From an uncultured Candidatus Binatia bacterium (GTDB taxonomy: Bacteria > Desulfobacterota > Binatia > Bin18), in NCBI GenBank assembly GCA_965200965.1, contig OZ241744.1, positions 1,696,001 to 1,760,000 of the forward strand: a DNA stretch of 64,000 nucleotides. Direction: 5' to 3'. Below, one piece after another: positions 42,220 through 64,000 of this stretch. The translations under genes were made by a program, and so were the position numbers. How positions within the stretch are numbered: position 1 is the stretch's first letter; each line of letters begins with the position of its first letter. Below the pieces are notes generated by a model. The model saw only the letters and a program-made list of their open reading frames with translations, searched no databases and was not told where the DNA came from.

Positions 42220-43218
42220 CTATGAGTCTATGGGCAGACTTTTATACGCCGCCCGCTCCTCCAGTACCCTGTCAATTCCAGTCATCCATTCCAAATCTCT
42301 TCCAATAACGAGTTCGGTCATTGCCGCGTGGTGGGTATTTTTCATGGAGATAGGCTTCGCCGCAAGGCCGTGTTTTCTCGCAAGCTCTCTCACTTCTTCT
42401 GCGTTGTCGTAGGTCATAATAAAATCGCCTTTTATTTTCTCACACCCCGCGAAAAGAGTTTCGTGATCTAATTCAAAATGCGTATACAGGCGGCTTCCCG
42501 CTTTCTTGCCGCCGGCCGTATAGGGAGGATCGATAAAAAAGACGACCTCTTTGTTATCTTTGTATTGTTCCAATGTCTGAAAGGCGTCTCTGTGCTCAAA
42601 AAACAACCTGTCCCGCGTCAGGTGAATCTCTCGCAGACGCTTGGCAAGCGTAGCAGGATACCAGCGTGAAAGAACGCCTTTCCCCGCTTCTCCGTTTTTC
42701 AGAAATCCGGCTCCCGACGCCAGAATCCCCCCGTGAAATGTCCGGTTTTTTATGATGGTTTGAAAAGCCCTCTCTTTCATCAATTTTCTCTTTGCATTGA
42801 TCTCGCTAAGAGCGTTCTCTTTCGACATTTCAAAATTGAGTATTCTCGAGGCGAGCCATTCTGCTTCCCCATCAATAAGGGTCTGCCACACGGCCGCGAT
42901 CTCCTCATCAAGCTCAACCATCAACGCGGCTTCAACCAGGTTTTCAAAAACTGCTGTTAAAGAAACGATACCGCCGCCGGCAAAAAGTTCAATCAAAAGA
43001 TTCGGACGCTTTGGTTGGCTGCACAGCCACTCCCGAAGACGAGGAACAAACCAAGTCTTACCGCCCGGATAGCGAAATGGACTTCGCTGGGGAACAGACG
43101 CAACATTCACCGCCTTCATACCCGGCAAGGGTCCGGCCACCTCAGGAGAAGTCTCAAGCTCAGCCAAAGGTTCCGCGGCTTCACCGAACAGCGATTTTTG
43201 CATGGAACTATGCCCCAA
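42220..43218 (-). CDS. D12-class (Dam-like) N6-adenine DNA methyltransferase
   Basis: SPFRYPGGK, ELFAGGG, FIDPPY; visibly lower GC than the flanks. Confidence 0.92.
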   Translation of the reverse strand: MGHSSMQKSLFGEAAEPLAELETSPEVAGPLPGMKAVNVASVPQRSPFRYPGGKTWFVPRLREWLCSQPKRPNLLIELFAGGGIVSLTAVFENLVEAALMVELDEEIAAVWQTLIDGEAEWLASRILNFEMSKENALSEINAKRKLMKERAFQTIIKNRTFHGGILASGAGFLKNGEAGKGVLSRWYPATLAKRLREIHLTRDRLFFEHRDAFQTLEQYKDNKEVVFFIDPPYTAGGKKAGSRLYTHFELDHETLFAGCEKIKGDFIMTYDNAEEVRELARKHGLAAKPISMKNTHHAAMTELVIGRDLEWMTGIDRVLEERAAYKSLPIDS

Positions 43219-44095
43219 GCGAGCCTTCGTTGGTTGGTGTAGAGGGCTGTTTTTGGTCCACCTTTGACTGAAGCAATTTCACAAAATTCTCAACCCTGCC
43301 AACCCTCGGCCGGGTTATCGTGTTCAAAGCCTCTGAGAATTTTGTATAGACGACCCTAGTTTTTGTCAAGTTATATCTGGGGGCTGCAAGGTCGAGAACA
43401 AGGGCATACACCAGCCAAGCCACTTCAGCCTCAGATTTTGCCACTTCTTCCAAAGCGGGGAGGGTATTGAAGAAAGAATGGTCTAAAGCGACCGCCATTT
43501 TCTTCTTCCAAGCGTGAAGAATTCCGCCCTTAAACATCAGTTGAGGGGCTAAGCGTTTTCGAGACGATGACAGAAAGTCAGGACGGGGAGAGTTGGGGTG
43601 ATCTGTCCAGTCCATTGAGGCATTCGCCCGGCAATCCGACATGTAATGCGAGAATGGCTCTCGTACATTTCCAGAAATGTAAACAGCCTGAATCTCTAAG
43701 GAGCCAAAGTCGTATACCCTTCCATTATGGTCATAAGCAGCTAACACCAAGTCAATATTCCCGGCAGACTTCCCATCAGAATCAGCCAGTCTTACCTCGG
43801 TCAACGGAGTCCAGGCAGTTCCTTCAGGGAAGAAGAAATCCGCAGCATCAGCGACGACACGCCAATTTTCACGAAATCGGATTGGACAGGTAATGACCGC
43901 GCTGTCCCGGTGGGAAATGCTACAGACCCCGAGGGGATCTTTCGCCTTGTCCTTGGTGCAAGCCGGAACCTTATTGTTGAATGGACAAAGTTTGTTCCCC
44001 CGATGGAGTATTGCCTGCGGACTAAAATCTGTCGGCAAATGGCCGAAAACCTCCGCTAAGGGCCGATTTTCCTTTTGCATCTTTCCTCTGTCCAC
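43208..44095 (-). CDS. NotI-family type II restriction endonuclease
   Basis: CPF..C.K...GVCS...CP.RF metal-binding cysteines; EV...GNID..L; EIQAVYISG; RPD..SS..KRL.PQL. Confidence 0.82.
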   Translation of the reverse strand: MDRGKMQKENRPLAEVFGHLPTDFSPQAILHRGNKLCPFNNKVPACTKDKAKDPLGVCSISHRDSAVITCPIRFRENWRVVADAADFFFPEGTAWTPLTEVRLADSDGKSAGNIDLVLAAYDHNGRVYDFGSLEIQAVYISGNVREPFSHYMSDCRANASMDWTDHPNSPRPDFLSSSRKRLAPQLMFKGGILHAWKKKMAVALDHSFFNTLPALEEVAKSEAEVAWLVYALVLDLAAPRYNLTKTRVVYTKFSEALNTITRPRVGRVENFVKLLQSKVDQKQPSTPTNEGSLGA

Positions 44096-48104: not shown

Positions 48105-48154
48105 GCAGGATGGAGGAGGGGGGACGACACGCCCGCGCTGGAACAAGCCGCTCT

Positions 48155-48184
48155 GCCGGATTACGCTTCGCTCATCCGCTCTAC
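48155..48184 (-). repeat. GTAG-type REP palindrome forming the 3' end of the ParA gene
   Basis: Minus strand GTAGAGCGGATGAGCGAAGCGTAATCCGGC, homologous to the REPs at 52611 and 54730; it encodes VERMSEA*. Confidence 0.8.
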
Positions 48185-50391: not shown

Positions 50392-50645
50392 GGCCGGCTC
50401 CGTTCATTCTGAGCCAGATGACGCCCGGGGGCTGGCCCGCCCGTCCTTTTCGCCAATCACGGGCAGCCCGGAATCACACCAATCACGGTTCAGACCGCCC
50501 TCGGTCGTCCTGACACGCGCCTTGACCGCGGCCCCAACTCCTCAACCGCCGTCCCGGGGGGCTCCTCGGGGGAGCTCAGAGCAAAGAAAGTGAGTGGGCA
50601 TGTCCTGTCTTTGAGCGGGGTCAACTGTGAACGGTATCACCGGGA

Positions 50646-50936
50646 TTATTCTGCTACTGTGACGTGTTCGTTTGCCCAGCGGGCGGGGAACGTCATGAAG
50701 CCCATAGCGGTGGTGAAAAATTCACCGGGGAGTTGGACGGTGATGGTCTCGCCGTCTATCTTCCTGATGATGCCACGAATGGAGCCGGCGGGCTTGTTGA
50801 CATGCCGGGCTTGGACAAACCCTGAAGACGGGCCGTTTTGGGTGGTAAGCGTCACCAGGTATTCGTCAGGAAACGCGCCGGTGCCGATGTGGCAGGGGAT
50901 ATTGACCGATTGTTCAAGCTGAAAGACCTTTGTCAC
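50646..50936 (-). CDS. Small hypothetical beta-rich protein
   Basis: 96 aa; GTG start preceded by AAGGAGGG; co-oriented with the island. Confidence 0.7.
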   Translation of the reverse strand: MTKVFQLEQSVNIPCHIGTGAFPDEYLVTLTTQNGPSSGFVQARHVNKPAGSIRGIIRKIDGETITVQLPGEFFTTAMGFMTFPARWANEHVTVAE

Positions 50937-50999: not shown

Positions 51000-51031
51000 G
51001 TAGGTCGGCTGAGCCGGCGGGCGTGAGCCGC
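51000..51031 (+). repeat. Single degenerate GTAG-type REP
   Basis: GTAGGTCGGCTGAGCCGGCGGGCGTGAGCCGC; shares the loop AGCCGGCGGGCGT with the REP at 52576. Confidence 0.7.
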
Positions 51032-51076
51032 TGGATCGCTCTGATCGTGGGGTTGTGCATGGGGTTCCTTCCTCAA

Positions 51077-52534
51077 CTACTCCACTTTAAACTTCTGATT
51101 TCCCTGTTGCGCCTTCAATGCCTCATACTTGGCAAAATCCAGAGAGGCTTCTCTGTCGTAAAAGGCTATCTTATTGGCCCATCCCCGATTGTGGTACGCC
51201 GCAGCAAAGTCAGGCTTTAGCGAAATGGCGCGGTCGTAGTCCGCAAGCGCCGCTTCGAGTTGCCCAAGATTTCTCTTGACATTGCCCCTACCGGAGTACG
51301 CTTCGGCGTAATTAGGGTCTAACCTGATAGCCTCCTCGTAGTCCGCAAGGGCTTCTGCGTTGCGTCCGAGTTCCTTCTTGACGTTGCCCCGGTTGTTATA
51401 CGCCGCAGCGTAACCGGGATTTAACCTAATAGCCTCATCGTAGTCCGCCAAGGCGGATTCATACTCCTTAAGTGCGAACCTGACAGCACCCCGGCTGTTG
51501 TACGCATCATAGTAATCAGGTTTTAGTTCAATAGCCTTATTGTAGTCCGCCAAGGCGGAGGCGTAATCCTTCTCGCTAAAGAACTTAATAACACCACGGT
51601 TGTAGTACGCTACGGCGTAATTAGGGTCTACCCTAATAGCCTCCTCGTAATCCGCAAGGGCTTCTGAGTACTCCTCCAAGAAGATTCTAAAATCGCCTCT
51701 CTGACAATAATTGTCACTTTGCACATTCTCCCGCATTGGTTCTCGACGCTTCTCCTTTCTGATTTCCGCGGTGTAGTAATGCGCTGCGAGTTCAGCGTTG
51801 TAGTCGGATTCGGCTGTGTTTCTCTCAAGAAAACCCGCCGAGTCGGGAAACAGCGTTTTCTCCGAAATGCCCACCCTGTCCAACTCTTGCAAGATCGTTT
51901 TCTGGTGCTCTCTGGAGACGATGATCTCCCGCTCGATCATACTTTCTTCTATTTCGGGTGCTCCAAACAGGAAGACGGACTGCTGTACCGTGAGGCGTTG
52001 GCTATCCAGGACAGGATTGCCGACAGCGGGCCGCCACATATGCCATTGATCATCTCGCTCAAAGAATTCCTTGAGTTCCTGCTTCAAGTCTTCTTGGGTG
52101 GTGACTTCTTGAATCGTGCCAGGCTGCTGGACGTTGACCACAAAGACCTTACCGTCTGTTTCCCCATCAGTTTTGCAGGCAAACCAGAGGGCAACCAGAG
52201 GATTGTAGGTAAAGTCTATCAGCCCGGTCGCTACCCCGTTGTGTTGGAGGTGGGCCATGCACTCCAGAGGCGTCAGATTGCTGTAGGCGTTGGGGTAGCG
52301 GAGATTCACTTCGTAAATAATCTGGTGGATGTAGCCTCTGAACAGGGCAAACACTAACCCAGGATGTTTCAACGGGCGCTTTCGCAGGCGGCGCAGGGCG
52401 CTGCTCTGCACCTTCCAGCTTTCATCCTTTTGGCCGCGGTAAATGTAGCGGCGCTCTTCGCCAGAGGCGGCAAGCTTGTCTATGACTGCGATGTAATCCG
52501 CCAAGCTGGTTATGGATTTTTGATCGTCGCTCAT
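51077..52534 (-). CDS. FRG-domain protein with C-terminal TPR repeats (copy 1, fused)
   Basis: YRGQ, LQHNGVATGLIDFTYNPLVALWFAC, RL..QQSVF; about 5-6 TPRs of the AYYNRG...ALADY..AI...P type. Confidence 0.9.
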   Translation of the reverse strand: MSDDQKSITSLADYIAVIDKLAASGEERRYIYRGQKDESWKVQSSALRRLRKRPLKHPGLVFALFRGYIHQIIYEVNLRYPNAYSNLTPLECMAHLQHNGVATGLIDFTYNPLVALWFACKTDGETDGKVFVVNVQQPGTIQEVTTQEDLKQELKEFFERDDQWHMWRPAVGNPVLDSQRLTVQQSVFLFGAPEIEESMIEREIIVSREHQKTILQELDRVGISEKTLFPDSAGFLERNTAESDYNAELAAHYYTAEIRKEKRREPMRENVQSDNYCQRGDFRIFLEEYSEALADYEEAIRVDPNYAVAYYNRGVIKFFSEKDYASALADYNKAIELKPDYYDAYNSRGAVRFALKEYESALADYDEAIRLNPGYAAAYNNRGNVKKELGRNAEALADYEEAIRLDPNYAEAYSGRGNVKRNLGQLEAALADYDRAISLKPDFAAAYHNRGWANKIAFYDREASLDFAKYEALKAQQGNQKFKVE

Positions 52535-52578
52535 ACGCTTCCCTCCACCGCCCTGATTTGCCCCTCGGTCAGCCCGCA
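52531..52578 (-). pseudogene. Relic of the 3' end of a type IIG methylase gene
   Basis: Translates CGLTEGQIRAVEGSV*, versus YGLTEEEVRAVEGSRA* in the gene at 54756; its TGA overlaps the FRG ATG. Confidence 0.75.
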
Positions 52579-52640
52579 GGGCGGGTTAGCCGGCGGGCGT
52601 AACCCGCCATGTCGGATTACGCTTCGCTAAGCCGACCTAC
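52576..52640. repeat. Inverted REP doublet (REPIN-like)
   Basis: GCAGGGCGGGTTAGC..GCGTAACCCGCC-AT-GTCGGATTACGCTTCGCTAAGCCGACCTAC; near-identical to 54695-54759. Confidence 0.88.
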
Positions 52641-53836
52641 GCGCTTTCCAATTCATTGATTTTTGCTTCTGCATCCCGCACGAATTCATTCTTCCCCTGC
52701 TGTTGCGCCAATGTCAGCGCGTGTTTAAAATCCGTCAAGGCGTCCGCAGTGCGCCCGAGTGCCTGCTTGGCCTCGCCCCGGTTGCTGTATGCCTCAGCAA
52801 AGTCACGCTCTAGTTTGATGGCTCGATCATAGTCCACCAAGGCGGAGGCGTACTCCTTAAGCTCTACCTTGGCATTGCCCCGGTTGTAGTACATCTCAGC
52901 CAAATCAGGCTTTAGCTCGATGGCGCGGTCATGGTCCGCAAGTGCCGCTTCGGATTGCCCAAGCTTTGCCTTGACATTGCCCCGGTTGCCGTACGCCTCA
53001 GCATAATCAGGCTTTAGCTCGATGGCGCGGTCATAGTCCGCAACGGCCTCCGCATCGCGCCCGAGTGCCTGCTTGGTGTTGCCCCGGTTGCTGTACGCCT
53101 CAACAAAGCCAGACTTTAGCTCAATGGCGCGGTCATAGTCCGCCAAGGCTTCCGCGTTGCGCCCGAGTGCCTGCTTGGCAGTACCCCGGTTGTAGTACGC
53201 CTCAACAAAGTCAGGCTTTAGCTCAATGGCGCGATCATAGTCCGCAAGCGCCGCTTCAGGTTGCCCAAGCTCTGCCTTGGCGTTGCCCCGGTTGCTGTAC
53301 GCCTCAGCGTCATTAGGCTTTAGGGCGATAGCGCGGTCATAGTCGACAAGCGCCGCTTCATACTCCTTAAGATCGAAATTGGCGACGCCCCGGTTGCTGT
53401 ACGCCTCAGCAAAGCCAGGCTTGAGCTCAATGGCACGGTCATAGTCCGCCAAGGCGGAGGCGTACTCCTTAAGCTTTACCTTGGCATTGCCCCGGTTGTT
53501 GTACGCATTAGCATAATCAGGCTTGAGCTCAATGGCGCGGTCATAGTCCGCCAAGGCGGAGGCGTACTCCTTAAGCGCTGCCTTGGCATTGCCCCGGTTG
53601 TTGTACACCTCAGCGTCATCAGGCTTTAGCTCGATAGCGCGGTCATAGTCCGCAAGCGCCGCTTCATACTCCTTAAGATCGGAATTGGCGACGCCCCGGT
53701 TGCTGTACGCATCAGCAAAGTCAGGCTCTAGCCTGATAGCCTCACCGTAGTCAGCAATGGCTTTCTCGTATTTGCCCAGCGCGACTCTGAAATTGCCTCT
53801 TTGAAAATAATTGTCGCTTAGCGCTTTCTTATTCAT
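52637..53836 (-). CDS. TPR protein (about 11 repeats), C-terminal half of FRG-TPR copy 2
   Basis: 102-bp repeats encoding AY.NRG.AK..L...E.ALADYDRAIELKP; ATG at 53836 with GGAGG upstream, overlapping the FRG stop. Confidence 0.85.
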   Translation of the reverse strand: MNKKALSDNYFQRGNFRVALGKYEKAIADYGEAIRLEPDFADAYSNRGVANSDLKEYEAALADYDRAIELKPDDAEVYNNRGNAKAALKEYASALADYDRAIELKPDYANAYNNRGNAKVKLKEYASALADYDRAIELKPGFAEAYSNRGVANFDLKEYEAALVDYDRAIALKPNDAEAYSNRGNAKAELGQPEAALADYDRAIELKPDFVEAYYNRGTAKQALGRNAEALADYDRAIELKSGFVEAYSNRGNTKQALGRDAEAVADYDRAIELKPDYAEAYGNRGNVKAKLGQSEAALADHDRAIELKPDLAEMYYNRGNAKVELKEYASALVDYDRAIKLERDFAEAYSNRGEAKQALGRTADALTDFKHALTLAQQQGKNEFVRDAEAKINELESA

Positions 53837-54653
53837 TGCCCTGGTCCTCCGCTTTTCTGATCTCCTCGGTGTAGTAATGCTCTGCGAGTTCAGCGTTGTA
53901 GACGGATTCGGCCGTGTTTCTCTCAAGAAAACCCGCCCAGTCGGGAAACAACGTTTTCTCCGAAATGCTCACCCTGTCCAACTCTTGCAAGATCGTTTTC
54001 TTGTGCTCTCTGGAGACGATGATCTCCCGCTCAAGCATACCTTTTTTTATTTCGGGTGCTCCAAACAGGAAGACGGACTGCTGCACCGTGAGGCGTTGGC
54101 TATCCAGGGCAGGATTGCCGATGACAGGTTGCCACAGATGCCATTGTTCATCGATCTCAAAAAACGTCTTGAGTTCCTGCCCCAAAGCTCTTTTGGTCGT
54201 GACTTCTTGAATCGTGTTGGGCTGGACGTTGACCACAAAGACCTTGCCGGCTGTCTCCCCAGCGGTTTCGCAGGCAAACCAGAGGGCAACCAGGGGACTG
54301 TAGGTAAAGTCTATCAGCCCGGTCGCTACCCTGTGGTGTTGGAGATGGGCCATGCACTCCAGGGGCGTCATCGGCTCGCTGTAGGTGTTGGGGTAGCGGA
54401 GTTGTACTTCGTCAATAATCTGGTGGATGTAGCCTCTGAACAGGTATGATATCGTCATCCCTTCATAGTTACGACTATAATCACGGCCGTATCCAGATTG
54501 TTCCAGGCGACGCAGGGCGCTGCTCTTGACCCCCCAGCTTTCATCCTTTTGTCCGCGGTAAATGTAGCGGCGCTCTTCGTCAGAGGCGGGAAGCCCGTTT
54601 ATGACTTCGATGTATTCCGCCAAGCTGGTTATGGATTTTTGATCGTCGCTCAT
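53829..54653 (-). CDS. FRG-domain protein (copy 2, split from its TPR domain)
   Basis: Paralogue of 51077-52534 with the same MSDDQKSITSLA start and FRG motifs. Confidence 0.88.
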   Translation of the reverse strand: MSDDQKSITSLAEYIEVINGLPASDEERRYIYRGQKDESWGVKSSALRRLEQSGYGRDYSRNYEGMTISYLFRGYIHQIIDEVQLRYPNTYSEPMTPLECMAHLQHHRVATGLIDFTYSPLVALWFACETAGETAGKVFVVNVQPNTIQEVTTKRALGQELKTFFEIDEQWHLWQPVIGNPALDSQRLTVQQSVFLFGAPEIKKGMLEREIIVSREHKKTILQELDRVSISEKTLFPDWAGFLERNTAESVYNAELAEHYYTEEIRKAEDQGNE

Positions 54654-54697
54654 CGGCTTCTCTCCATCGTCCTGATTTGCTCCTTGATCAGCCCGTA
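54650..54697 (-). pseudogene. Second relic of a type IIG methylase 3' end
   Basis: Translates YGLIKEQIRTMERSR*; its TGA overlaps the FRG ATG; it begins at the REP terminal CTAC. Confidence 0.7.
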
Positions 54698-54759
54698 GGG
54701 CGGGTTAGCCGTCAGGCGTAACCCGCCATGTCGGATTACGCTTCGCTAATCCGACCTAC
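54695..54759. repeat. Inverted REP doublet (REPIN-like)
   Basis: GTAGGGCGGGTTAGCCGTCAGGCGTAACCCGCC-AT-GTCGGATTACGCTTCGCTAATCCGACCTAC; GTAG ends on both strands. Confidence 0.9.
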
Positions 54760-57700
54760 GCCCGACTGCCCTCCACCGCCCGCACTTCCTCCTCCGTCAA
54801 CCCATACAGCCCATACACCAGCCGGTCAATCTCGGCTTCCTGCTCGGCGGTGTCTGCCGAGGGGTCGGCGGCTTTGGCCTTGAGGATGCGGTCAAGCAGC
54901 CGGATGGACGGGCGCTGCTTGGCGGCTGATATCTCAGGGACGGGCAGGCGCTCTACGGCAAACCTTTTCCATCGAGTGACACCCATTCCAGAAGTCAGGC
55001 CCGTACTTTTCATAAACCACGTCATCAGATTAGAATTGAGGACAGCGCACAGATATTTGATTGCTCGCCCGGACATCATAAATGCGGTATCAGCGCAGAA
55101 CATTTCGCTCGCATCATAAGCGAATCGCCCTTGCTCAGTCAGGTCCATCCAGAACAGCTTTTCTTTGGTAAACTCCTTGTAAGCTCCCGAACTGTAATAA
55201 TCTACTTGCAGTTGCCACCATTGATAAGGCACCTGCCCCGTCTTTGGATTAGCTCCGCCCCGCCGCTTCAAAAGCTGCTTCTTGTGCGGTAACAGATGTT
55301 TTCGCACTGCGGGATATTCATTTTCTGCGATGTTGGAATGGCTGTATATCAGCCACACCCCCGCCCACTCTGCCCGATACCGCCGAATGTCCCGGCCCCG
55401 CAGCACCGGCTTGATGATGTCCGCGGAAGCCGGGTCTTCGTCAATCAACGCCTGCCTGGTGGTGTCGTCTATAATGAAGGCCGTGTTGTAGCCGGTCTTG
55501 ATGCCATAGTTGATCTTCACATCCCAGTCTTTCAGCGGCGTCCCTTTCGCCTCCATCTTATCCATGACGGACCATTCCAGGGCCGACAACGCACCCCACG
55601 GCTTTTCGCCTTGCGGGCGCAACACCCCCCACAGGCTTTCGGCCGGCGGAAAATCCTTGTCGGGCAAGCGGTCCATGTCTACCGCTCTGCCGGCTTCTCC
55701 GCTTTTGCCCTGCCGCGCAATCAGAACGCTGGTATCAACAATAGCGTTTTCAAAAACGTCTTTGCCCATTTCCAGCAGGCGCAGCGGTGTGTGTTGCTCG
55801 GAGAACCAGCGCCGCAGGGGCTTGCCGTATTCGGCCTTCAGCCAACTGTTTGAGGTGATGTAGGACAAGAGGCCGCGTTGCGGTGTCAGCAGTTGGCCGC
55901 CTCTCTCATAGAAAAGCTGATAGATGTCGCCGCTGCGGGCGAAGGTGGCAAAGCCGGCGTCTTTATAGAGTTTGCCCAGCTCGCCGGCGTTCTTCTGTAA
56001 CTGAACATACGGCGGATTGCCGATCACCACATCAAAGCCCTCAGCCACACCGAACATATACTCAGCGTCAAACCAGCCGGCGCGGGCGTTCTGGTCGTAG
56101 GGGTCCCACTGCGCGATCTTGTCGGCGTCATCCGCGGGAAACCCAAGGCTTTCCAATGCCTGCGCCAACGACTTCCGTAACTGCTTGTCTTTTCTCTTGT
56201 ACTCCAGCTTTTTCCGGCGCGTGGTGGCGTGAAAATGCCGCTCGCGGTTGTCCAGTAACTGACGCTCCACCTGCTGCGCTTTTGCGCTCGTCAGCATCCG
56301 CTCGCCCTTGAGACCCAGAAGCGTATCCGCAGCAATAAAGCGCGTTTCCAGGTTGGGCAGCGGCTTGAGGCCGAAATTGTCCGCGGCGGGGTCGGGCTCC
56401 TGCTCAATGGCCAGCGAGATGAAAAAACGCAGCTTGGCGATCTGGCAGGCGACCGGCTGAATGTCTACACCGAAGATGCTGTTCTGAATCAGGTACAGCT
56501 TGCGGCCAAAGTCGGAATCGCGGTAGCGTTCAAAAGTCTGGCTGATCTCGGTCAACTCGGCCTCGCGGTCGCCCTGGTCCCGGGTATCAAAGGCGGCTTG
56601 GGCCCGGTCCCGGGCGATCGCTTTTTGCAGCCCCTCCCAACGGGTGTTGTCAGGGTCAAGCCGGCGCAAGGCCAGGGTAAGCTTGTGCAGCACGCCCATT
56701 GGAAACGCCCCGGAGCCAACCGCGGGGTCCAGCACCTTGAGCCCGGCTATGGCCCGGACAACCGCGTCGGTCTCAGCCGCGTCAAACAACGCGCTGGCGT
56801 CGCTGAAGGCATCGGCATAGTCCAGCAGATAACGAAGGCGTTCCTGCCAGAACACGCGGTCGTTGTCGCTCGGCTGGCAGCGTTCGGCCAGGGCGGCGAC
56901 AAGGGCCTCATCAACCATGTAGTCCACCACCGGCCGCGGGGTGTAGTAAGAGCCGGTCTGCTTGCGGGCCGTGTCGCGGGTTTCGGGGTTGTAGGCGGCC
57001 AGCAGGTTTTCAAACACCTTGCCGAGCAGCTCAGGGTCAAGGGCGACTTCCTGCTCTATGGGCGTGTTCTCCTCAACCGTGAACTTGTAACTGTTGAACA
57101 GCGGAATAAGGCCGTGGTCATCAAAGAACAGCCGGTTGGGGATGGAATAGTCCCGCCGGTGGCGGGGGTTGTCGGTAAAACAGTCAATCCGCCAGCCCTG
57201 CTCCGAGGTGGCTTCTTCGCTGTCGAGGCAGTCAAACAGCCCGCCGTTGATGAACGGCGTCCGGCTGAACAGGGCCAGCAGTGCGTCGGGGTTGCGGAGT
57301 TCGGAGCGGTAGCGGTACAGCGAAAAATTGCGGTGGGTGGTACGCTTCCCGCTGCTGAAGCCGCGCTTGGTCCTCTCGGTGTTCAGGGTGGCGAAAAACA
57401 GGTTCTGGAGCACCGCCCGGTACCAGGAATCGCCGGTGTCCCGGTCGTAGTCGCGGAGCAGGGCCGCGACCTCGCTTTCGTTGAACAGCTCGTCCGCTAC
57501 CAGGCCCTTTTCCTTGATGAACCAGACAAACAACAGCCGGGTAATGAGACGGATGATGTGTTCTTCGGGCGACAGGGTTCTGGCCGGCGAGGTGTCACCA
57601 GATCGTCCTTTGGGAAACCGGGCCTCTGTGACGCCACGGCTGAACCAGTCGAACAACTGCCGGTAGAAGCGGCGGTTCAGTTCCCGCGTGTCCAGGGTGT

Positions 57701-58364
57701 CGAGCCAGGCGTTGAGCAGCCCGTCAAAATTGTGGGGGATATGGTGGCTGGTCATCCAGTCCAGCAGATTCTCCAGCGACAACCCGGCCAGGATGTCGAG
57801 GTGGGCACGGTGCGGGTCGGTGGGGTTGATTTCACGGATCAGCGACACGCGGCCCAGCACATCACGGCTGTGGTCGAGCGTGTTGCGTCGGCGATGGACA
57901 AAGGCCAGGCTGAGCCGGTCGTCAGAGCTGCGGAACAGGACCACCACAGGTGCGGGGAAACGCTTGTTGATCTCGCGGGTGAAAGCGGCGTAGCGGCTCC
58001 GGGGGTAGCTGGCCTGTTTCAAGGCAACGGCAAAGAACAGAAAGCTCTGCTGCCGGCCCTGCTCAAAGGCCGCCAGCCCGGAATCCAGCCGCGGGGGCTG
58101 GCTGGCGGCGATCTCATCGCTTGTCACCTGAAACAGCAGCCGGACCGAGGCGGCGTTCTCACACAAGGCCCGCTCTGAGTCTGTGCCCGGCCGCTCAGCC
58201 GGAAAAGCCCGCAGGAAGTCGTCAACAGCCCCGGTCTGCTCGCTCAGGCGGCGGTCACTGCGGTAGCCGAGGGCGGCCAGCAGCTCGGTGGCCGCGGCGG
58301 CAAAGTCCGGCCCGGCAGCGTTCTTCAAGGCGGTCTGGATGGCGCGGAGGGTGCTCAAGGGCAT
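54756..58364 (-). CDS. Type IIG/Eco57I-like N6-adenine methyltransferase with TaqI-like C-terminal specificity domain
   Basis: PFINGGLF, LGKVFENLL, GSYYTP, LDPAVGSGAF, FGVDI, GFDVVIGNPPY, LRGRDI.RY, IDRLVY.LYGLT. Confidence 0.92.
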   Translation of the reverse strand: MPLSTLRAIQTALKNAAGPDFAAAATELLAALGYRSDRRLSEQTGAVDDFLRAFPAERPGTDSERALCENAASVRLLFQVTSDEIAASQPPRLDSGLAAFEQGRQQSFLFFAVALKQASYPRSRYAAFTREINKRFPAPVVVLFRSSDDRLSLAFVHRRRNTLDHSRDVLGRVSLIREINPTDPHRAHLDILAGLSLENLLDWMTSHHIPHNFDGLLNAWLDTLDTRELNRRFYRQLFDWFSRGVTEARFPKGRSGDTSPARTLSPEEHIIRLITRLLFVWFIKEKGLVADELFNESEVAALLRDYDRDTGDSWYRAVLQNLFFATLNTERTKRGFSSGKRTTHRNFSLYRYRSELRNPDALLALFSRTPFINGGLFDCLDSEEATSEQGWRIDCFTDNPRHRRDYSIPNRLFFDDHGLIPLFNSYKFTVEENTPIEQEVALDPELLGKVFENLLAAYNPETRDTARKQTGSYYTPRPVVDYMVDEALVAALAERCQPSDNDRVFWQERLRYLLDYADAFSDASALFDAAETDAVVRAIAGLKVLDPAVGSGAFPMGVLHKLTLALRRLDPDNTRWEGLQKAIARDRAQAAFDTRDQGDREAELTEISQTFERYRDSDFGRKLYLIQNSIFGVDIQPVACQIAKLRFFISLAIEQEPDPAADNFGLKPLPNLETRFIAADTLLGLKGERMLTSAKAQQVERQLLDNRERHFHATTRRKKLEYKRKDKQLRKSLAQALESLGFPADDADKIAQWDPYDQNARAGWFDAEYMFGVAEGFDVVIGNPPYVQLQKNAGELGKLYKDAGFATFARSGDIYQLFYERGGQLLTPQRGLLSYITSNSWLKAEYGKPLRRWFSEQHTPLRLLEMGKDVFENAIVDTSVLIARQGKSGEAGRAVDMDRLPDKDFPPAESLWGVLRPQGEKPWGALSALEWSVMDKMEAKGTPLKDWDVKINYGIKTGYNTAFIIDDTTRQALIDEDPASADIIKPVLRGRDIRRYRAEWAGVWLIYSHSNIAENEYPAVRKHLLPHKKQLLKRRGGANPKTGQVPYQWWQLQVDYYSSGAYKEFTKEKLFWMDLTEQGRFAYDASEMFCADTAFMMSGRAIKYLCAVLNSNLMTWFMKSTGLTSGMGVTRWKRFAVERLPVPEISAAKQRPSIRLLDRILKAKAADPSADTAEQEAEIDRLVYGLYGLTEEEVRAVEGSRA

Positions 58365-58392: not shown

Positions 58393-61300
58393 TCAGGCGG
58401 CACGGATGACGAGCCAGCTGACAAGTTCAAAGTCATCGTCGGGCGTGCCGGCACTGGAAGCCACCGGCAGCTTGAAATCGCGGTTGCTGCGCAGCTGGGC
58501 GACCTGGGTGGCGTGGTTCGCCTCGTCGATGTGGGCAAGCACCGCCTGCACCAGCCGGTCGTACCGGGCCATGTTCCGGCCGTGGCGGGTTTCGCGGTCA
58601 AACTGGTCGCACAGCCGTTGCAGCGGCTTGGTCCTGCCCTCTGCCGCGGCCTCAAATACGTCGAGCGCCTGCCGGGCGTTGGTGCAGCCGTGGCGGATGT
58701 CGCCGGTCTCGTGGATGTAGACCGCATAAAAGGGATGGATCGGGCTGGCCGCTTTTTCGCGCCTGTCCGTGCCGGCCCCACGCTGGCGCAGAAAAAATAT
58801 CGCGCCGGGTTGGGCCGGGCCGTCCGTGACCGCGTACACCCCGGCCGGCGTGGCTTCGAGTTCGGCCCGGTTTTTTTCGAGATAGCGCAGGAGCTGGGCA
58901 AAGAAATAATCCAGGGTGAAATCGCTCATCACCACGCCGTCGTCCAGCTCGTCGAGGTCCAGCACCTCTTCCTGCAACTGGCGGAGCTGCCGGTCACGGA
59001 AGTTCAACTCCATCTGGGCCTGCGCAAAGGTGAAGGTGTTCAGCGGGTCGTCATCACCGCTGGCCGCGGCGTCGGCCAGCGCCATGCGTGCCTCAACCCG
59101 GCTTTGCAGGCGGAGATAGACATCCATGTCTTTGGTCGGCCAGTAGTTAATCATCCGCACCCTTGTGTTGCGGCTGCCGATGCGCTCAATCCGCCCAAAG
59201 CGCTGGATGAGGCGGACCGGATTCCAGTGAATGTCATAGTTCAGCACGGTGTCGCAGTCCTGGAGGTTCTGCCCCTCTGAAATGCAGTCGGTGGCGATCA
59301 GCAGGTCAATGTCGCCCTCAACCCCCGCGGCCCGGCCCCGCGCCCGGGGGGCAAAGTTGCTCAGGATAGCGTTGAAATTGTTGTCGCCGTAACTGGTATG
59401 GGTCACATCGCCCGACACCATCGCCATGTGCAGCCCCAGTTCATCGGCCAGCCCGCGCAACTCCCGGTAGAGATATTCGGCCGTGTCCCTGAAGGTAGTG
59501 AACACCAGCAGCTTGCGGTTTGGCCGGCCGTCGCGGTCGGTCGGCGGGCAGGCCACCTTGTGGCGCAGCTCGCTCCGCATCTCGTTGAGCTTGCCGTCCC
59601 GCTCCGGCGTGATGGTCTTCAACTCGTCCAGGACCGCGCTCAGGGTGTGCCGGTCGCGGCGGACATCGGCCTGCCAGCGGGGCAGGTCCAGCTCCCGCAG
59701 GTGATACGGGCGGCGCGCCCGATTGACCAGGAACTCCTCATCGTCTTCGTCAGGCTCGGGCAGGATATCGCCCGGCATCTCCGCGCCGCGGTGTTCGTGG
59801 CCATGCTGCTCGTAGTCGGCGATCCTGGCCAGCAAGCTGTCCATTTTGTCAATGGTGCGGCCCAGGGTTTCCGCCAGAGCATAGGCCGAACTCTCCAGCC
59901 GCTTCAGAAAGTTCGTCCGCATCATGCCGAGCAGGAAGCGCTCGCGGTCTTCCTGATTGAAGTTTCTCTCCCGCTTTTCCCGGACCAGGACCTGCTTTGC
60001 CTTCTGGCTCACCAGGTACTCGGAGGGCCTGTAGATGGACAGGGCGAATTGGCCGATCTGCTCGGACAGGGCTGTGTACGACAGCGCCCCGTCCAGGTCG
60101 GTCGGCGGGTAGCGGTTGTCCGGCTGCCGGGTTGTGGGAAACTCGCCGATGGTCTGCATTTCTTCGGCGTAGAAGGTCTTGATCTGCCGCCGCGAGCGGG
60201 CGATGGACACGCCGCCGAGCAACTGGAAAAAATCGGCCCCGAGTTTTTCCAGCAGGTGCGCCTTATCTTTTGGCCCGGCCTTGTCCTGCCAGTCGCTGAA
60301 CGCCTTCTGGGCCCGGCCCAGCACCGTGCCGATATGGCTGATGCCCAGACTGTCGCGGAACACATCCTCGCGCTTTTCGGTCATAAGATAGATCTGGTTG
60401 CGCAGGTCAAGAAGCGAGGTGTTGACCGGGGTGGCCGACAGCATCAGCACCCTGGTTTGCGCCCCGTGCCGGATGACTTCTTCCAGCAGCCGTGCGTAGC
60501 GGCTGCGGCCCACCCGCCCGCTGGCGTCGGGCCGGGGCCTGGTGTCGTTGCGGAAGTTGTGCGACTCGTCAATCACCACCAGATCAAAATTGCTCCAGTT
60601 GAAGCGTGCCAGGTCAATATCCCCGGCCCTGCCGGTGTCGCGGGACAGGTCGGTGTGCGACAGCAGGCTGTAGCCGAAACGGTCGGCGAGAAAGGGGTTG
60701 TCGGTCTGGGCGTGGACAGCCGGATACAAGGCCCAGTTGTCACGCAGTTTTTTTGGGCATAGCACCAGCACCCGTTCGTTGCGCAGTTCAAAGAACTTGA
60801 TGACCGCCAGCGCGGTATAGGTCTTCCCCAAGCCCACGCTGTCGGCCAGGATGCAGCCCTTGTGGCGCAGCAGACGGGCGATGACGCTCTTGGCCCCGTC
60901 TTTCTGGAAGCCGTACAGCGCCTTCCAGATGGCGGTGTCGTACAGGTGGGTGTCGGACAGGTCGCGCTCGCCGGCCTGTCTGGCTTCCAGCTCGTCGCCG
61001 AACAGCTCAAACAGGGTCTTGTAGTAGACGAGTTCCGGCGCGTGGTCCTTGCCGAGGCGGGCCAGCGCGTCCAGTACCTCGTGTTTCACGTCGCTGGTCA
61101 GCGCGGTATCGGCCCAGATAGCGTCAAACCAGTGCCGCAGGTCGGCGCGTATCTCTTCGGAGGCGCTTGCCAGGTTGATTTCCATGTTGGTGCCGGGGCC
61201 GCAGCCCAGCCCCCTCCGGGTGAAATTCGAGCTGCCCACCACCGCCACACCCCCGGCGGCCCCAGACTCGGCGAGATACATCTTGCCGTGCAGAAAACTG

Positions 61301-61647
61301 GACTGACTGATGGAGCGGATTTTGACCCGCCCGCTCTGGACCCAGGCGGTGCAGTCCCGGGCGAGGTGTGTCTGCCGCAAGGTGTGGCTGGGCGACAACC
61401 GGCCTTCGGTCAGGCAGAAGGCTTTGGGGTCTTTTGGCCCGGGGTCCACTTCGCCGACCGAGGCCGGGTCGCCGAACAGAAACCGCACATCTTTGATGCC
61501 GCTCAGTTCGTGCTGGAGTGCCTCATAGCCGTAAATGCTGAAATAGGCCGAAACCAGGCGAAAGACTGTGGCGTCCGCCAGACCCTGGCGCAGGTAGTCA
61601 ACGACCGGGCGGGAGTGGTTGTCCAGAATGTGTTCGTATCTCTGCAT
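58393..61647 (-). CDS. Phospholipase D-like nuclease fused to SNF2-family helicase
   Basis: LHGKMY...GSSNFT (PLD); LADSVGLGKT, DESH, SATP, EGQNLQ, QRFGRI.RIG. Confidence 0.92.
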   Translation of the reverse strand: MQRYEHILDNHSRPVVDYLRQGLADATVFRLVSAYFSIYGYEALQHELSGIKDVRFLFGDPASVGEVDPGPKDPKAFCLTEGRLSPSHTLRQTHLARDCTAWVQSGRVKIRSISQSSFLHGKMYLAESGAAGGVAVVGSSNFTRRGLGCGPGTNMEINLASASEEIRADLRHWFDAIWADTALTSDVKHEVLDALARLGKDHAPELVYYKTLFELFGDELEARQAGERDLSDTHLYDTAIWKALYGFQKDGAKSVIARLLRHKGCILADSVGLGKTYTALAVIKFFELRNERVLVLCPKKLRDNWALYPAVHAQTDNPFLADRFGYSLLSHTDLSRDTGRAGDIDLARFNWSNFDLVVIDESHNFRNDTRPRPDASGRVGRSRYARLLEEVIRHGAQTRVLMLSATPVNTSLLDLRNQIYLMTEKREDVFRDSLGISHIGTVLGRAQKAFSDWQDKAGPKDKAHLLEKLGADFFQLLGGVSIARSRRQIKTFYAEEMQTIGEFPTTRQPDNRYPPTDLDGALSYTALSEQIGQFALSIYRPSEYLVSQKAKQVLVREKRERNFNQEDRERFLLGMMRTNFLKRLESSAYALAETLGRTIDKMDSLLARIADYEQHGHEHRGAEMPGDILPEPDEDDEEFLVNRARRPYHLRELDLPRWQADVRRDRHTLSAVLDELKTITPERDGKLNEMRSELRHKVACPPTDRDGRPNRKLLVFTTFRDTAEYLYRELRGLADELGLHMAMVSGDVTHTSYGDNNFNAILSNFAPRARGRAAGVEGDIDLLIATDCISEGQNLQDCDTVLNYDIHWNPVRLIQRFGRIERIGSRNTRVRMINYWPTKDMDVYLRLQSRVEARMALADAAASGDDDPLNTFTFAQAQMELNFRDRQLRQLQEEVLDLDELDDGVVMSDFTLDYFFAQLLRYLEKNRAELEATPAGVYAVTDGPAQPGAIFFLRQRGAGTDRREKAASPIHPFYAVYIHETGDIRHGCTNARQALDVFEAAAEGRTKPLQRLCDQFDRETRHGRNMARYDRLVQAVLAHIDEANHATQVAQLRSNRDFKLPVASSAGTPDDDFELVSWLVIRAA

Positions 61648-61672
61648 TGAGGCGTCTCTCGCCTGGACCTGC

Positions 61673-62605
61673 CTATCCGGCCCACCCCCCGGTTTGCACA
61701 TAGCGGGCCGCGGCCAGCCCCGCGGTTGCGCCGTCGCCGGCCGCGGAGACCAGCTGGCGCGACGACTCGGCACGCACATCGCCGGCCGCCAGGATGCCCG
61801 GTACCGCGGTCCGCATCTGGAGGTCGGTCAGAATCTGGCCCCGGGCGTTCAGGGCAACGCGCCCGTTGAGAAAGCCGGTGTTGGGCCTGAGACCGACATA
61901 GATGAAGACGCCGGCGGCCTCAAGGCGGGAGGACTGGCCGGTTTGCAGGTCTTCGAGGTGTACCCGCTCAACACCCTCGCCGCCCTCAATCGCCCGCAGC
62001 GCGGTATTCCACCGGAAGCGCAGTTTGTCGGCTTGCCGGGCGCGGTCCTGGAGGGCGCGGCAGGCCCGCAGCGTGTCCCGGCGGTGGACCAGCGTGACCG
62101 CTGAGGCATACCCGGTGAGGTGCAGGCCCTCGTCCAGTGCGGCATCACCACCGCCGACCACCACCACCGGCTTGTCCATGAAAAACGCGCCGTCGCAGGC
62201 CGCGCAGTGCGACACGCCCCTGCCGGCAAAGGCTGCCTCACCCGGAATGTCCAGGCTGGCAAAGCGCGAGCCGCTGGCCACAATCAGGGCCCTGGCCCGC
62301 AGCTCGCCGGCGTCGGTATCCAGTACCCTGTCCGCGCCCTCCAGCCGGACCGAGGCCACCTCGCTCAGTCGCATGTCCAGGCCAAAGCTCATGGCCTGCT
62401 GCTGCAACAGCGGCCCCAGCGTATAGCCGGCCACCCCGTCGGGAAAGCCGGGGTAGTTTTCAATCCGCTCGCAGTTGAGGACCTGGCCGCCGGCCGAAAA
62501 GCGTTCCAGCAGGACGGTCCGGCAGCCGGCCCGGGCCGCGTACAGGCCGGCGCTGAAGCCGGCCGCCCCGCCGCCGATAACGATAATGTCGCAGGTCCCA
62601 GCCAT
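61673..62605 (-). CDS. trxB: Thioredoxin reductase
   Basis: IGGGAAG, IENYPGF, GVSHCAACDG (CxxC), GGGDAA, AAGDV. Confidence 0.92.
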   Translation of the reverse strand: MAGTCDIIVIGGGAAGFSAGLYAARAGCRTVLLERFSAGGQVLNCERIENYPGFPDGVAGYTLGPLLQQQAMSFGLDMRLSEVASVRLEGADRVLDTDAGELRARALIVASGSRFASLDIPGEAAFAGRGVSHCAACDGAFFMDKPVVVVGGGDAALDEGLHLTGYASAVTLVHRRDTLRACRALQDRARQADKLRFRWNTALRAIEGGEGVERVHLEDLQTGQSSRLEAAGVFIYVGLRPNTGFLNGRVALNARGQILTDLQMRTAVPGILAAGDVRAESSRQLVSAAGDGATAGLAAARYVQTGGWAG

Positions 62606-63018: not shown

Positions 63019-64000
63019 ATGGCCCGAAAAGTGGAAAAAACAGAACGCTATCTGAATACGCGCCACGCCGGCCTCACCGGTCTGCTACTCCTGTGCGGCC
63101 TGCTGTTGACCCTTGCCCCCACGGCCAGGGCGCAAACAGCCACCTCCACGCCGGCCGCAACCCTCACCGTCACCACCCTTACGGATGACGCCAAAACGCC
63201 GGCACCGGGGTCTCTCCGCTATCAGGTGAACCGGGCCAAGGCCATGTCTACCTCGACGACAATCATTTTCGACCCGGCCCTCAGTGGCGGCACCATCACG
63301 CCCACCCGCCGGCTGGAGCTCTCTGGCAACATACATCTCCTCGCCCAGGATGCCGCCGGGATGTCCATTGGTATGACGCTCGATGGGTCACGGCTCCCGG
63401 CTGGCAATGATGTGCTGACCATCTCTTCCAACACCGCCACCGTTTCGGGATTCGATATCGTCAACTTCGCCGATGCGGGCATCGCCGTCTCAGGCTCTTG
63501 GAGATGCCCGGCCAAGGCACGGGTCACGATCTCCGATAATGTCCTGATAGTAGCCACTTCTACGGCCGTCGGGATTGAGGTGGGCAGTGGCACCCGCCGG
63601 TGCTCCGCCGTGACCATCAGCGAGAATCGGATCGCGGCGGATACGTCTGAGCCGGAAAGCCGAGGGGCCGGCATCTACATTACTGTCGAGGGGTTTAGCG
63701 CCAGGGCGGCCGCCACCGTGTCCGGTAATACTATCACCGGGGCCGGCATCCGCTTTGAAAACGCTGGCGACGGGGGTACCAATGAGATGACCGCCACCGT
63801 GTCCGGTAATACTATCACCGGGGCCGGCATCCGCTTTGAAAACACTGGCGGCAGGGGTATCTACAGGCTAAAGGCCACCGTGTCCGGTAATACTATCACC
63901 GGGGCCGGCATCCACTTTGAAGACGATGCCCGCCGCGGGGTTTTCCCCTATGATTATGATCCCGGTCATCGCAGGCTAAAGGCCACCGTGTCCGGTAATA
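63019..64000 (+). CDS. Secreted right-handed beta-helix (pectin-lyase-fold) protein, truncated by the window end; absent from the ORF track
   Basis: Open from ATG 63019 to the edge: MARKVEK..GLLLLCGLLLTLAPTARA signal peptide; TVTTLTDD..PGSLR..TTIIFDPALSGGTI; repeated ATVSGNTITGAGI.F units. Confidence 0.85.
   Translation, partial: MARKVEKTERYLNTRHAGLTGLLLLCGLLLTLAPTARAQTATSTPAATLTVTTLTDDAKTPAPGSLRYQVNRAKAMSTSTTIIFDPALSGGTITPTRRLELSGNIHLLAQDAAGMSIGMTLDGSRLPAGNDVLTISSNTATVSGFDIVNFADAGIAVSGSWRCPAKARVTISDNVLIVATSTAVGIEVGSGTRRCSAVTISENRIAADTSEPESRGAGIYITVEGFSARAAATVSGNTITGAGIRFENAGDGGTNEMTATVSGNTITGAGIRFENTGGRGIYRLKATVSGNTITGAGIHFEDDARRGVFPYDYDPGHRRLKATVSGN
63712..64000 (+). repeat. Intragenic repeat: 48-bp constant block with variable in-frame inserts
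   Basis: GCCACCGTGTCCGGTAATACTATCACCGGGGCCGGCATCCRCTTTGAA starts at 63712, 63793, 63874 and 63982 (last copy cut off); periods 81, 81 and 108 bp. Confidence 0.92.

Follow-up and report, generated by a model that had tools for sequence, protein, structure and literature searches.

The locus treated here raises the question of how two short copies of one methylase gene end came to lie downstream of that gene, each behind a repetitive extragenic palindromic (REP) sequence and each overlapping the start of an FRG gene. It is found in a stretch of 64,000 nucleotides (the window; positions 1,696,001 to 1,760,000 of contig OZ241744.1, assembly GCA_965200965.1) from an uncultured Candidatus Binatia bacterium, whose genome, G000 in what follows, is 3.62 Mb long and 99.3% complete. 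An earlier interpretation made from the letters of the window (the sequence-only reading) had seen in this stack an integron-like defence cassette array with REPs in the place of attC sites. We favor a different history, at a probability of roughly 0.6, in which both relics stem from one junction, likely formed when a REP doublet forming hairpins (REPIN) was inserted by a REP-associated tyrosine transposase (RAYT) with a 35-bp target duplication, and in which the unit was then likely copied once by REP recombination. The integron-like reading appears to be mostly wrong for the methylase-FRG locus: its coupling of the genes and its link between REP and RAYT are borne out, and its repeated junctions and its specificity swap at the REP are not.

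Two relics, one junction

On the minus strand the order is a PLD-SNF2 helicase, a type IIG methylase, REP_A, relic 1, FRG-2, TPR-2, REP_B, relic 2, a fused FRG-TPR gene and REP_C; every part of the arrangement described earlier (methylase, REP doublets, relics, FRG, TPR, degenerate REP) is present. The features are listed below by window position, with comparisons to G007, a genome of the same genus, and to strain X5, known from public-run contigs.

58393..61779, minus: PLD and SNF2 helicase gene (Pfam PLDc_2, SNF2-rel_dom, Helicase_C), upstream of the methylase
54756..58364, minus: predicted type IIG restriction-methylase gene (Pfam Eco57I, TaqI_C; PADLOC REase_MTase_IIG, E 5e-126), start ATG
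54932..55348, minus: variable stretch within the specificity region, with other sequence in strain X5 between flanks that are kept; low identity to G007
54766..54800, minus: upstream (coding) copy of the proposed 35-bp target duplication, ending AG
54692..54765, minus: REP_A, a REPIN with a 65-bp GTAG...CTAC core (54759-54695) and short arms
54650..54697, minus: relic 1 of the methylase tail, with a 35-bp copy at 54691-54657 and a purine-rich stretch before the FRG-2 start
53829..54653, minus: FRG-2 gene (Pfam FRG; PADLOC PDC-S15)
52637..53833, minus: TPR-2, a separate gene whose stop is the TAG of REP_B; junction of gene end and REP as in G007
52576..52640, minus: REP_B, the second doublet, likely a recombinant
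52531..52578, minus: relic 2, with a 35-bp copy at 52572-52538 and GGAGG 7 bases before the FRG-1 start
51077..52534, minus: fused FRG-1/TPR gene, 77% identical to FRG-2 in amino acids
51000..51032, minus: REP_C, a degenerate single REP half of a different stem variant, with no relic after it
48153..48184, minus: REP_D, a REP half that supplies the stop of a ParA-like gene

The methylase combines an Eco57I-type N6 methylase and a C-terminal specificity domain in one large polypeptide and is predicted on this basis to be of type IIG. Its C-terminus reads YGLTEEEVRAVEGSRA and ends at 54756, the TAG stop codon being the TAG of the GTAG of REP_A. Relic 1 reads YGLIKEQIRTMERSR up to its stop, in an ATGA overlap with the FRG-2 start, and relic 2 reads CGLTEGQIRAVEGSV up to its stop and overlaps the start of the fused FRG-TPR gene, with an end (EGSV, stop, ATGA) identical to that of the intact G007 methylase. 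The tail pattern has three matches in the six frames of the 3.62-Mb genome, namely the methylase and the two relics, so the relics are not chance resemblances. Nor is the structure an assembly artefact, since public-run contigs cover parts of the locus (record 26 of X5 spans the methylase tail, the doublet, relic 1 and the FRG start). Strain-level detail is at the level of contigs; those of strains X4 and X5 cover parts of the array without bridging it, and the number of units cannot be counted from them. The closest relatives of the FRG proteins are in Candidatus Binatia records, and DNA of the locus is present in several sponge metagenomes, with no RNA data set listed among its sources. FRG is a predicted ADP-ribosyltransferase-fold antiviral effector according to excerpts of PMC9503650.

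Both relics start at the same base. They share three codon changes (CAA, AGG and a third-base A) that are absent from nine other tails, REP_A and REP_B have the same 3-bp spacer and second stem, and the repeated unit begins at the GTAG of a REP, which agrees with the sequence-only reading. Because there is one shared junction and the three codon changes are derived, the two relics appear to be a single event copied by REP-to-REP duplication, and not the outcome of the repeated joining at LYGLT codons that had been proposed. That proposal also placed the start of the relics at the terminal tetranucleotide of the REP, doubling as the Tyr codon. The shared start stands; the coincidence of the Tyr codon with the CTAC of the REP is probably incidental. 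The GGG that follows CTAC is compatible with the REP arm as well as with the methylase; the preferred position of the junction is 3 bp past the CTAC, at the CT of the Leu codon.

The state before this event is suggested by G007, which is 86% identical to G000 over a 7.4-kb syntenic flank (locus L036) and has a helicase orthologue (82% identical) in the equivalent position. Its methylase ends in YGLTDEEIRAVEGSV and a stop, with an ATGA overlap with FRG and without a REP, and it carries one FRG-TPR and a different array. This overlap without a REP makes the inference that FRG was originally coupled to the methylase right; a like overlap, of an intact methylase with a distant FRG-TPR, is present in G062. 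A REP half with the junction of REP_B is already present at the end of TPR in G007. The left junction of REP_B resembles this old REP and its spacer and second stem resemble REP_A, and the stem of REP_C is closer to the old REP of G007. The downstream flank of REP_D resembles the flank of the TPR-end REP of G007, which has no family REP after ParA.

The specificity region has changed without involving the REP. In strain X5, positions 54932-55348 are replaced inside the region, and the tail, REP_A and relic 1 are kept, with 12 differences in 304 bases. Since the swap lies upstream and this block is kept, the swap does not end at the REP, contrary to what had been suggested.

The REPIN family and its insertion footprint

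A profile search for REP halves in G000 revealed a dispersed, mostly intergenic family of 46 halves at 40 loci, with none in a shuffled genome. Matches to the doublet pattern on both strands number 59 in G006, 35 in G001, 20 in G005, 4 in G024 and 1 in G007 (reversed control, 0). GTAG lies 5' of a short palindrome, and two inverted copies form two hairpins closed by GTAG/CTAC (fold -24.3 kcal/mol, a figure without a shuffle control). In G001, G006 and G024 the same REP flanks a 171-amino-acid RAYT (NF047646, 182-190 bits against a cut-off of 80; in G001 at L096:1697-2212), and the first 31-32 bases of REP_A are 100% identical to the RAYT-flanking REPs of G001 and G006. The doublets of G001, G005 and G006 extend into conserved arms, 25 and 30 bp long, with CTAG at their ends. 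Excerpts of PMC8266576 and PMC3333891 describe RAYTs as cutting between C and T (written C^T below), one of them also at C^A, and as performing strand transfer in vitro, and state the route of REPIN entry into new sites to be unresolved. According to excerpts of PMC8266576 and PMC3733652, respectively, about one bacterial species in four has RAYT genes, and the supply of stop codons by GTAG is a known habit of such REPs. The sequence-only reading had tied GTAG REPs to RAYTs, and both the RAYT-flanking family in relatives and the position of the junction on C^T, the RAYT cut site, agree with it. It had also stated that the window holds no RAYT gene, and neither does G000, with 0 matches to PF01797 and a best tblastn E value of 0.69 with the RAYTs of relatives. 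The RAYT has since been lost from G000, and the structure is therefore likely a fossil and not an active array.

The junctions of family members with their surroundings follow a rule. Truncated arms join the flank at C^T in 19 of 29 cases in a first set (null expectation 3.0; 0 of 5000 simulations) and in 7 of 18 cases in a separately fetched second set (null 1.9, P 0.002), and over 70 independent copies the count is 33 of 55 (null 5.6). Of the first 70 loci, 9 without a core were dropped and the remaining 61 were reduced to 46 by their flanks; from 40 newly fetched loci, 10 without a complete core and 6 orthologous duplicates were removed. Direct repeats of 18-78 bp flank 8 of the 70 copies and none of the 28 that have both arms long, with a mismatched-pair null of about 0.1%. 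Seven of the eight repeats are adjacent to the element, and four of these seven run cleanly from CT to AG. For six repeats, orthologous empty sites carry the sequence in single copy: L215 (49 bp, four empty-site genomes), L193 (28 bp, one genome), L174 (22-24 bp, two genomes), L323 (about 76 bp, three genomes), L161 (44 bp, four genomes) and L223 (36 bp, CT...AG, three genomes). The full-length copies L184 and L194 overlap their empty site by 3-6 bp around CTAG, and the truncated copy L227 has lost a few target bases. L212 carries 150 extra bases, and no clean empty site was found for L189, L207 or L209. Short exact duplications at the GTAG/CTAC edges were not consistent, because the element extends into the arms.

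Filled and empty sites thus attest to the mobility of the REPIN. We infer that the two ends of the REPIN are joined independently of each other, each to a C^T of its own strand, and that the stagger between the two sites sets a duplication or a deletion; the genomic junctions (33 of 55) fit cleavage and strand transfer by RAYT at C^T. This integration footprint of a RAYT-associated REPIN is well supported and apparently undescribed. No report of a REPIN target duplication was found in searches of the open-access literature; supplements and older papers on bacterial interspersed mosaic elements of E. coli may hold one.

Applied to the methylase locus, the model would start from the ancestral methylase-FRG-TPR-REP order with a tail free of REPs, the state seen in G007. 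Each REPIN end would have been joined to a C^T on its own strand, a step that is demonstrated across the family and presumed here. Adjacent CTs (CTAG) would give a 3-4 bp duplication, staggered CTs would duplicate the CT...AG stretch between them (18-78 bp), and the opposite stagger would cost a few bases. Both arms of REP_A, read outward, meet the flank at C^T, with a CT 3 bp beyond the right end and 6 bp beyond the left end. The 35 bp between those CTs (CT...AG in G007) occur once on each side of REP_A, at 54800-54766 and 54691-54657. The first base of the upstream copy is now T, where G007 and the relics have C, and this copy is identical at 27 of 35 positions to relic 2, at 23 of 35 to relic 1 and at 29 of 35 to the G007 tail. 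REP_A is the only one of the 40 REP loci in G000 with a flank direct-repeat score of at least 14; its score is 15, which 2% of random pairs reach. The insertion would have been tolerated because the methylase stayed intact through the upstream copy, with the GTAG as its stop, and FRG retained its ribosome-binding site through the downstream copy. The second unit would then have come from an unequal crossing-over of REP_A with the older REP behind TPR, and specificity swaps, as seen in one strain, would take place upstream between conserved blocks and leave the REP untouched. One REP insertion followed by one tandem duplication, the outcome that the sequence-only reading had named as its own refutation, is the most economical account of the locus.

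Several observations weigh against this model. At the locus itself, an empty allele close to G000 was not found, G007 being only about 86% identical in the syntenic flank. The 35-bp copies are 23-27/35 identical and no closer to each other than to G007 (24-29/35), which makes an allele swap or a one-ended capture of a methylase end possible. Part of the methylase 3' region is closer to G046 than to G007, and there is only one base at which the current tail agrees with the relics and differs from G007 and G062. The FRG units are mosaic (68-94% identical by window), so the duplication is either old or took place between diverged alleles, and the crossing-over step may have joined such alleles. 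In the family at large, the REPIN arms themselves contain CTs. Among the remaining adjacent repeats, one has only the CT start, one has only the AG end and one is ambiguous; the repeat of L216 lies 117 bp from the element, that of L189 has no usable empty site, and the empty sites of L223 are 11-12 bp shorter than its repeat. G005 has many REPINs and no RAYT match, and the REPIN of G000 is short-armed, in contrast to the long-armed one studied in G001, G005 and G006.

Other histories for the stack

An unlikely alternative, which reduces the idea of the sequence-only reading to a single event, is that incoming DNA with a different methylase 3' end and a REP behind it recombined by homology inside the methylase. 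Its REP end would have been linked at C^T to the tail already present, the old tail would have stayed behind as a relic, and one duplication would have come afterwards. The current tail has changes of its own (TTG, GTG, AGT), and in one 150-column window part of the 3' region is 84% identical to G046 against 55% to G007. Gene capture by REP units has been proposed for flanking genes, according to excerpts of PMC3333891. At 81.5-84.2 kb of G000, moreover, a REP meets, at C^T, 41 bp copied from a gene end that lies 1.5 kb away. A copy of this gene end stands behind each of two REPs there: the continuation of the first relic matches the intact gene end of G003, G004 and G006, and the second relic, which follows a second, degenerate REP, has a more upstream start within that gene end. 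The cargo order differs from that of the REP-free G007, and the stack is consistent with capture at a REP end, although other readings exist. At the methylase, however, one tail would have had to undergo a REP event twice, in the donor and again at the join, where a single insertion is enough, and one family member (L223) is indeed flanked by a 36-bp CT...AG repeat. No donor with tail and REP occurs among 24 tails, and a similar-looking NYN case turned out, from the gene order of G007, to be a tandem duplication with a REP-adjacent deletion.

Two of these regions deserve a description of their own. Around the 81.5-84.2 kb stack (L367:7300-11800, G000 81.3-85.8 kb), small unannotated open reading frames (ORFs) are stacked downstream of another Eco57I-like gene, with two REP-relic junctions to the end of a convergent gene and a promoter-like stretch common to both REP sides. 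The rejected NYN candidate (G000 456190) is a 206-bp copy of the NYN 3' end directly after a hairpin, joined to the REP at C^T. It lies in a defence island after smpB (L365:2600-9200, G000 450.6-457.2 kb) that contains a duplicated NUDIX-AAA-DUF3226-NYN block and relics of several gene ends. Another candidate, a 5' relic of a type III Res gene near G000 3035627, was also rejected; it starts 18 bp from a REP and not at a CT.

The integron-like array, in which REPs would be reusable sites and FRG-TPR or specificity cassettes would be repeatedly added and reordered at the methylase tail, is very improbable at this locus. Both FRG units are bounded by REPs, and a stacked array is present at the locus in G007 too. 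REPs also cluster near methylase-like genes in G000: of 12, 1 lies within 200 bp (the methylase-FRG locus itself; 0.05 expected), 4 lie within 1 kb (0.24 expected) and 6 within 2.5 kb (0.54 expected), the expectations being for random positions under a null that ignores islands. This part of the earlier claim, an enrichment of REPs near methylase genes, thus holds, and other REP-relic junctions at C^T exist. A targeting of methylase tails is not supported. Among 51 related methylase loci, several of them near-duplicates, 24 have a detectable tail, and the 200 bp around these tails contain neither a REP of the family nor any generic GTAG hairpin; a metagenome scan with the methylase C-terminus found 35 distant loci, several near-identical, none with the family REP. 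The locus has only one junction, the swap in X5 is not at a REP, and G000 has no RAYT. The 209 local duplications of G000 have 836 breakpoints, of which 6 are at REP ends (1.4 locally expected, P 0.003); the six represent about 3-4 independent events, less than 1% of all. REPs are a minor joint among many, and not the usual joint that had been supposed. A loose CT test on the genome-wide breakpoints was uninformative (3 of 6 against a 31% background).

REP-free relics further speak against REPs as the usual joint. In G007, about 150 bp of the methylase 3' end are fused to an AlbA 5' piece, and this fusion closes an array in which 3' ends of TPR or methylase genes are fused to 5' ends of AlbA; the REP lies within the unit and not at the joints. 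In G005 (L093:8264-8471), a 30-codon methylase tail overlaps a distant FRG-TPR and the helicase is cut to a 42-codon start, again without a REP before the FRG. The G007 array region, downstream of FRG-TPR (L036:9790-12930), has repeated units composed of the 3' end of TPR, half a REP, a small gene that holds 33-bp repeats and a 5' fragment of AlbA; a dCTP-deaminase-like ORF, recognized by eye, follows orf96. On a metagenome contig (L139:12910), a relic of a methylase tail without a REP probably lies downstream of a type IIG gene, at a distance of about 4 kb. Finally, that the tail duplication arose without any RAYT-dependent step is hardly probable: REP-free tail relics are common (G007, G005, probably L139), long target duplications at restriction-modification (RM) loci are described in excerpts of PMC2853133 and local duplications abound in G000 (209), but here the two copies have nothing between them except the REPIN, CT (5.6% of dinucleotides) marks both junctions, and the family has produced such structures at unrelated genes, as empty sites demonstrate.

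A broader idea would make RAYT a general end-joining integrase for defence hot spots, which, in addition to its insertion of bare REPINs with long CT...AG duplications, would link kilobase DNA by its REP end to a C^T of a conserved gene tail; the stack at 81.5-84.2 kb of G000 would be an example, and the methylase-FRG locus might be another. We regard it as doubtful; a weaker cassette-capture model is kept alive by the other REP-relic C^T junctions in defence islands. If the integrase idea were true, the other end would recombine by homology, defence cassettes would stack and leave gene-end relics, REPs would be attC-like joints, and the RAYT-REPIN system would gain a benefit to the host.

Further repeats were observed near other methylase genes and elsewhere in the window. 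A 230-bp tandem duplication (98.7% identity) at the 3' end of another Eco57I-like gene (L358:6534-6988, G000 908.5-909.0 kb) lies about 90 bp from a REP half and is not joined to it. Downstream of a type ISP enzyme (L356:7000-8540, G000 2.995-2.9965 Mb) there are 582-bp tandem units with a REP in each, and a REP-free paralogue of these units lies near 3.196 Mb. The window also holds a NotI-family endonuclease adjoining a D12-class adenine methylase (42220-44095) and 81-bp coding repeats at its edge (63683-64000), and strain X4 has about 570 extra bases between orf96 and the AlbA gene (50472-50656).

Known systems and the meaning of the footprint

The element is closest to the REPIN/RAYT systems of group 3, as described in excerpts of PMC3116915, PMC8266576, PMC3333891 and PMC3733652. 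The likenesses include a GTAG-tagged inverted doublet with hairpins, a single-copy RAYT flanked by the same REP (in relatives), junctions at C^T that match the in vitro cut, GTAG stop codons, and few, decayed copies where the RAYT is lost. Every REPIN feature tested is present except a RAYT in its own genome. The differences are that those excerpts describe no target-site duplication, whereas here 3-78 bp duplications or small deletions lie between C^T sites on opposite strands, and that here conserved 25-30-bp arms end in CTAG. The IS200/IS605 Y1 transposons are alike in HUH chemistry, hairpin ends and a short target motif, but excerpts of PMC3333891 and PMC2817692 present them as moving in single-stranded form without flanking repeats, whereas the pattern here implies joins on both strands and the empty sites show duplications. 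The RM-locus insertions of Furuta, Abe and Kobayashi (2010; excerpts of PMC2853133) share a long duplication over a stop/start overlap that leaves the genes intact and, separately, C-terminal specificity swaps between type IIG alleles. There an RM gene set is inserted without another mobile element, whereas the insert considered here is a 74-bp REPIN that follows a defined junction rule.

Integron attC arrays also have hairpin elements between promoterless, coupled genes of the defence type. Here there is no adjoining integrase (none among the ten flanking ORFs scanned), no equivalent of attI, one cassette type and one junction event; a recombinase at or near the array and several independent junctions, two of the integron features, are both absent. 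Shyamala, Schneider and Ames reportedly placed REP sequences at the join-points of tandem duplications in a 1990 paper, which by its title is alike in having a REP bound a gene-scale tandem duplication.

On present evidence, the methylase-FRG stack is a one-off scar in a rearrangement-prone defence locus and not a new cassette system. It illustrates how a REPIN can enter an overlapping gene pair and leave both genes unbroken. The filled and empty sites of the family in this genus provide an in vivo footprint, in which both ends join C^T, one per strand, with a variable duplication or deletion, and this footprint connects real insertions with the C^T chemistry known in vitro. Such joining would explain the inverted doublet as the mobile unit, and the CT...AG duplications are likely the footprint of how such common repeats spread.

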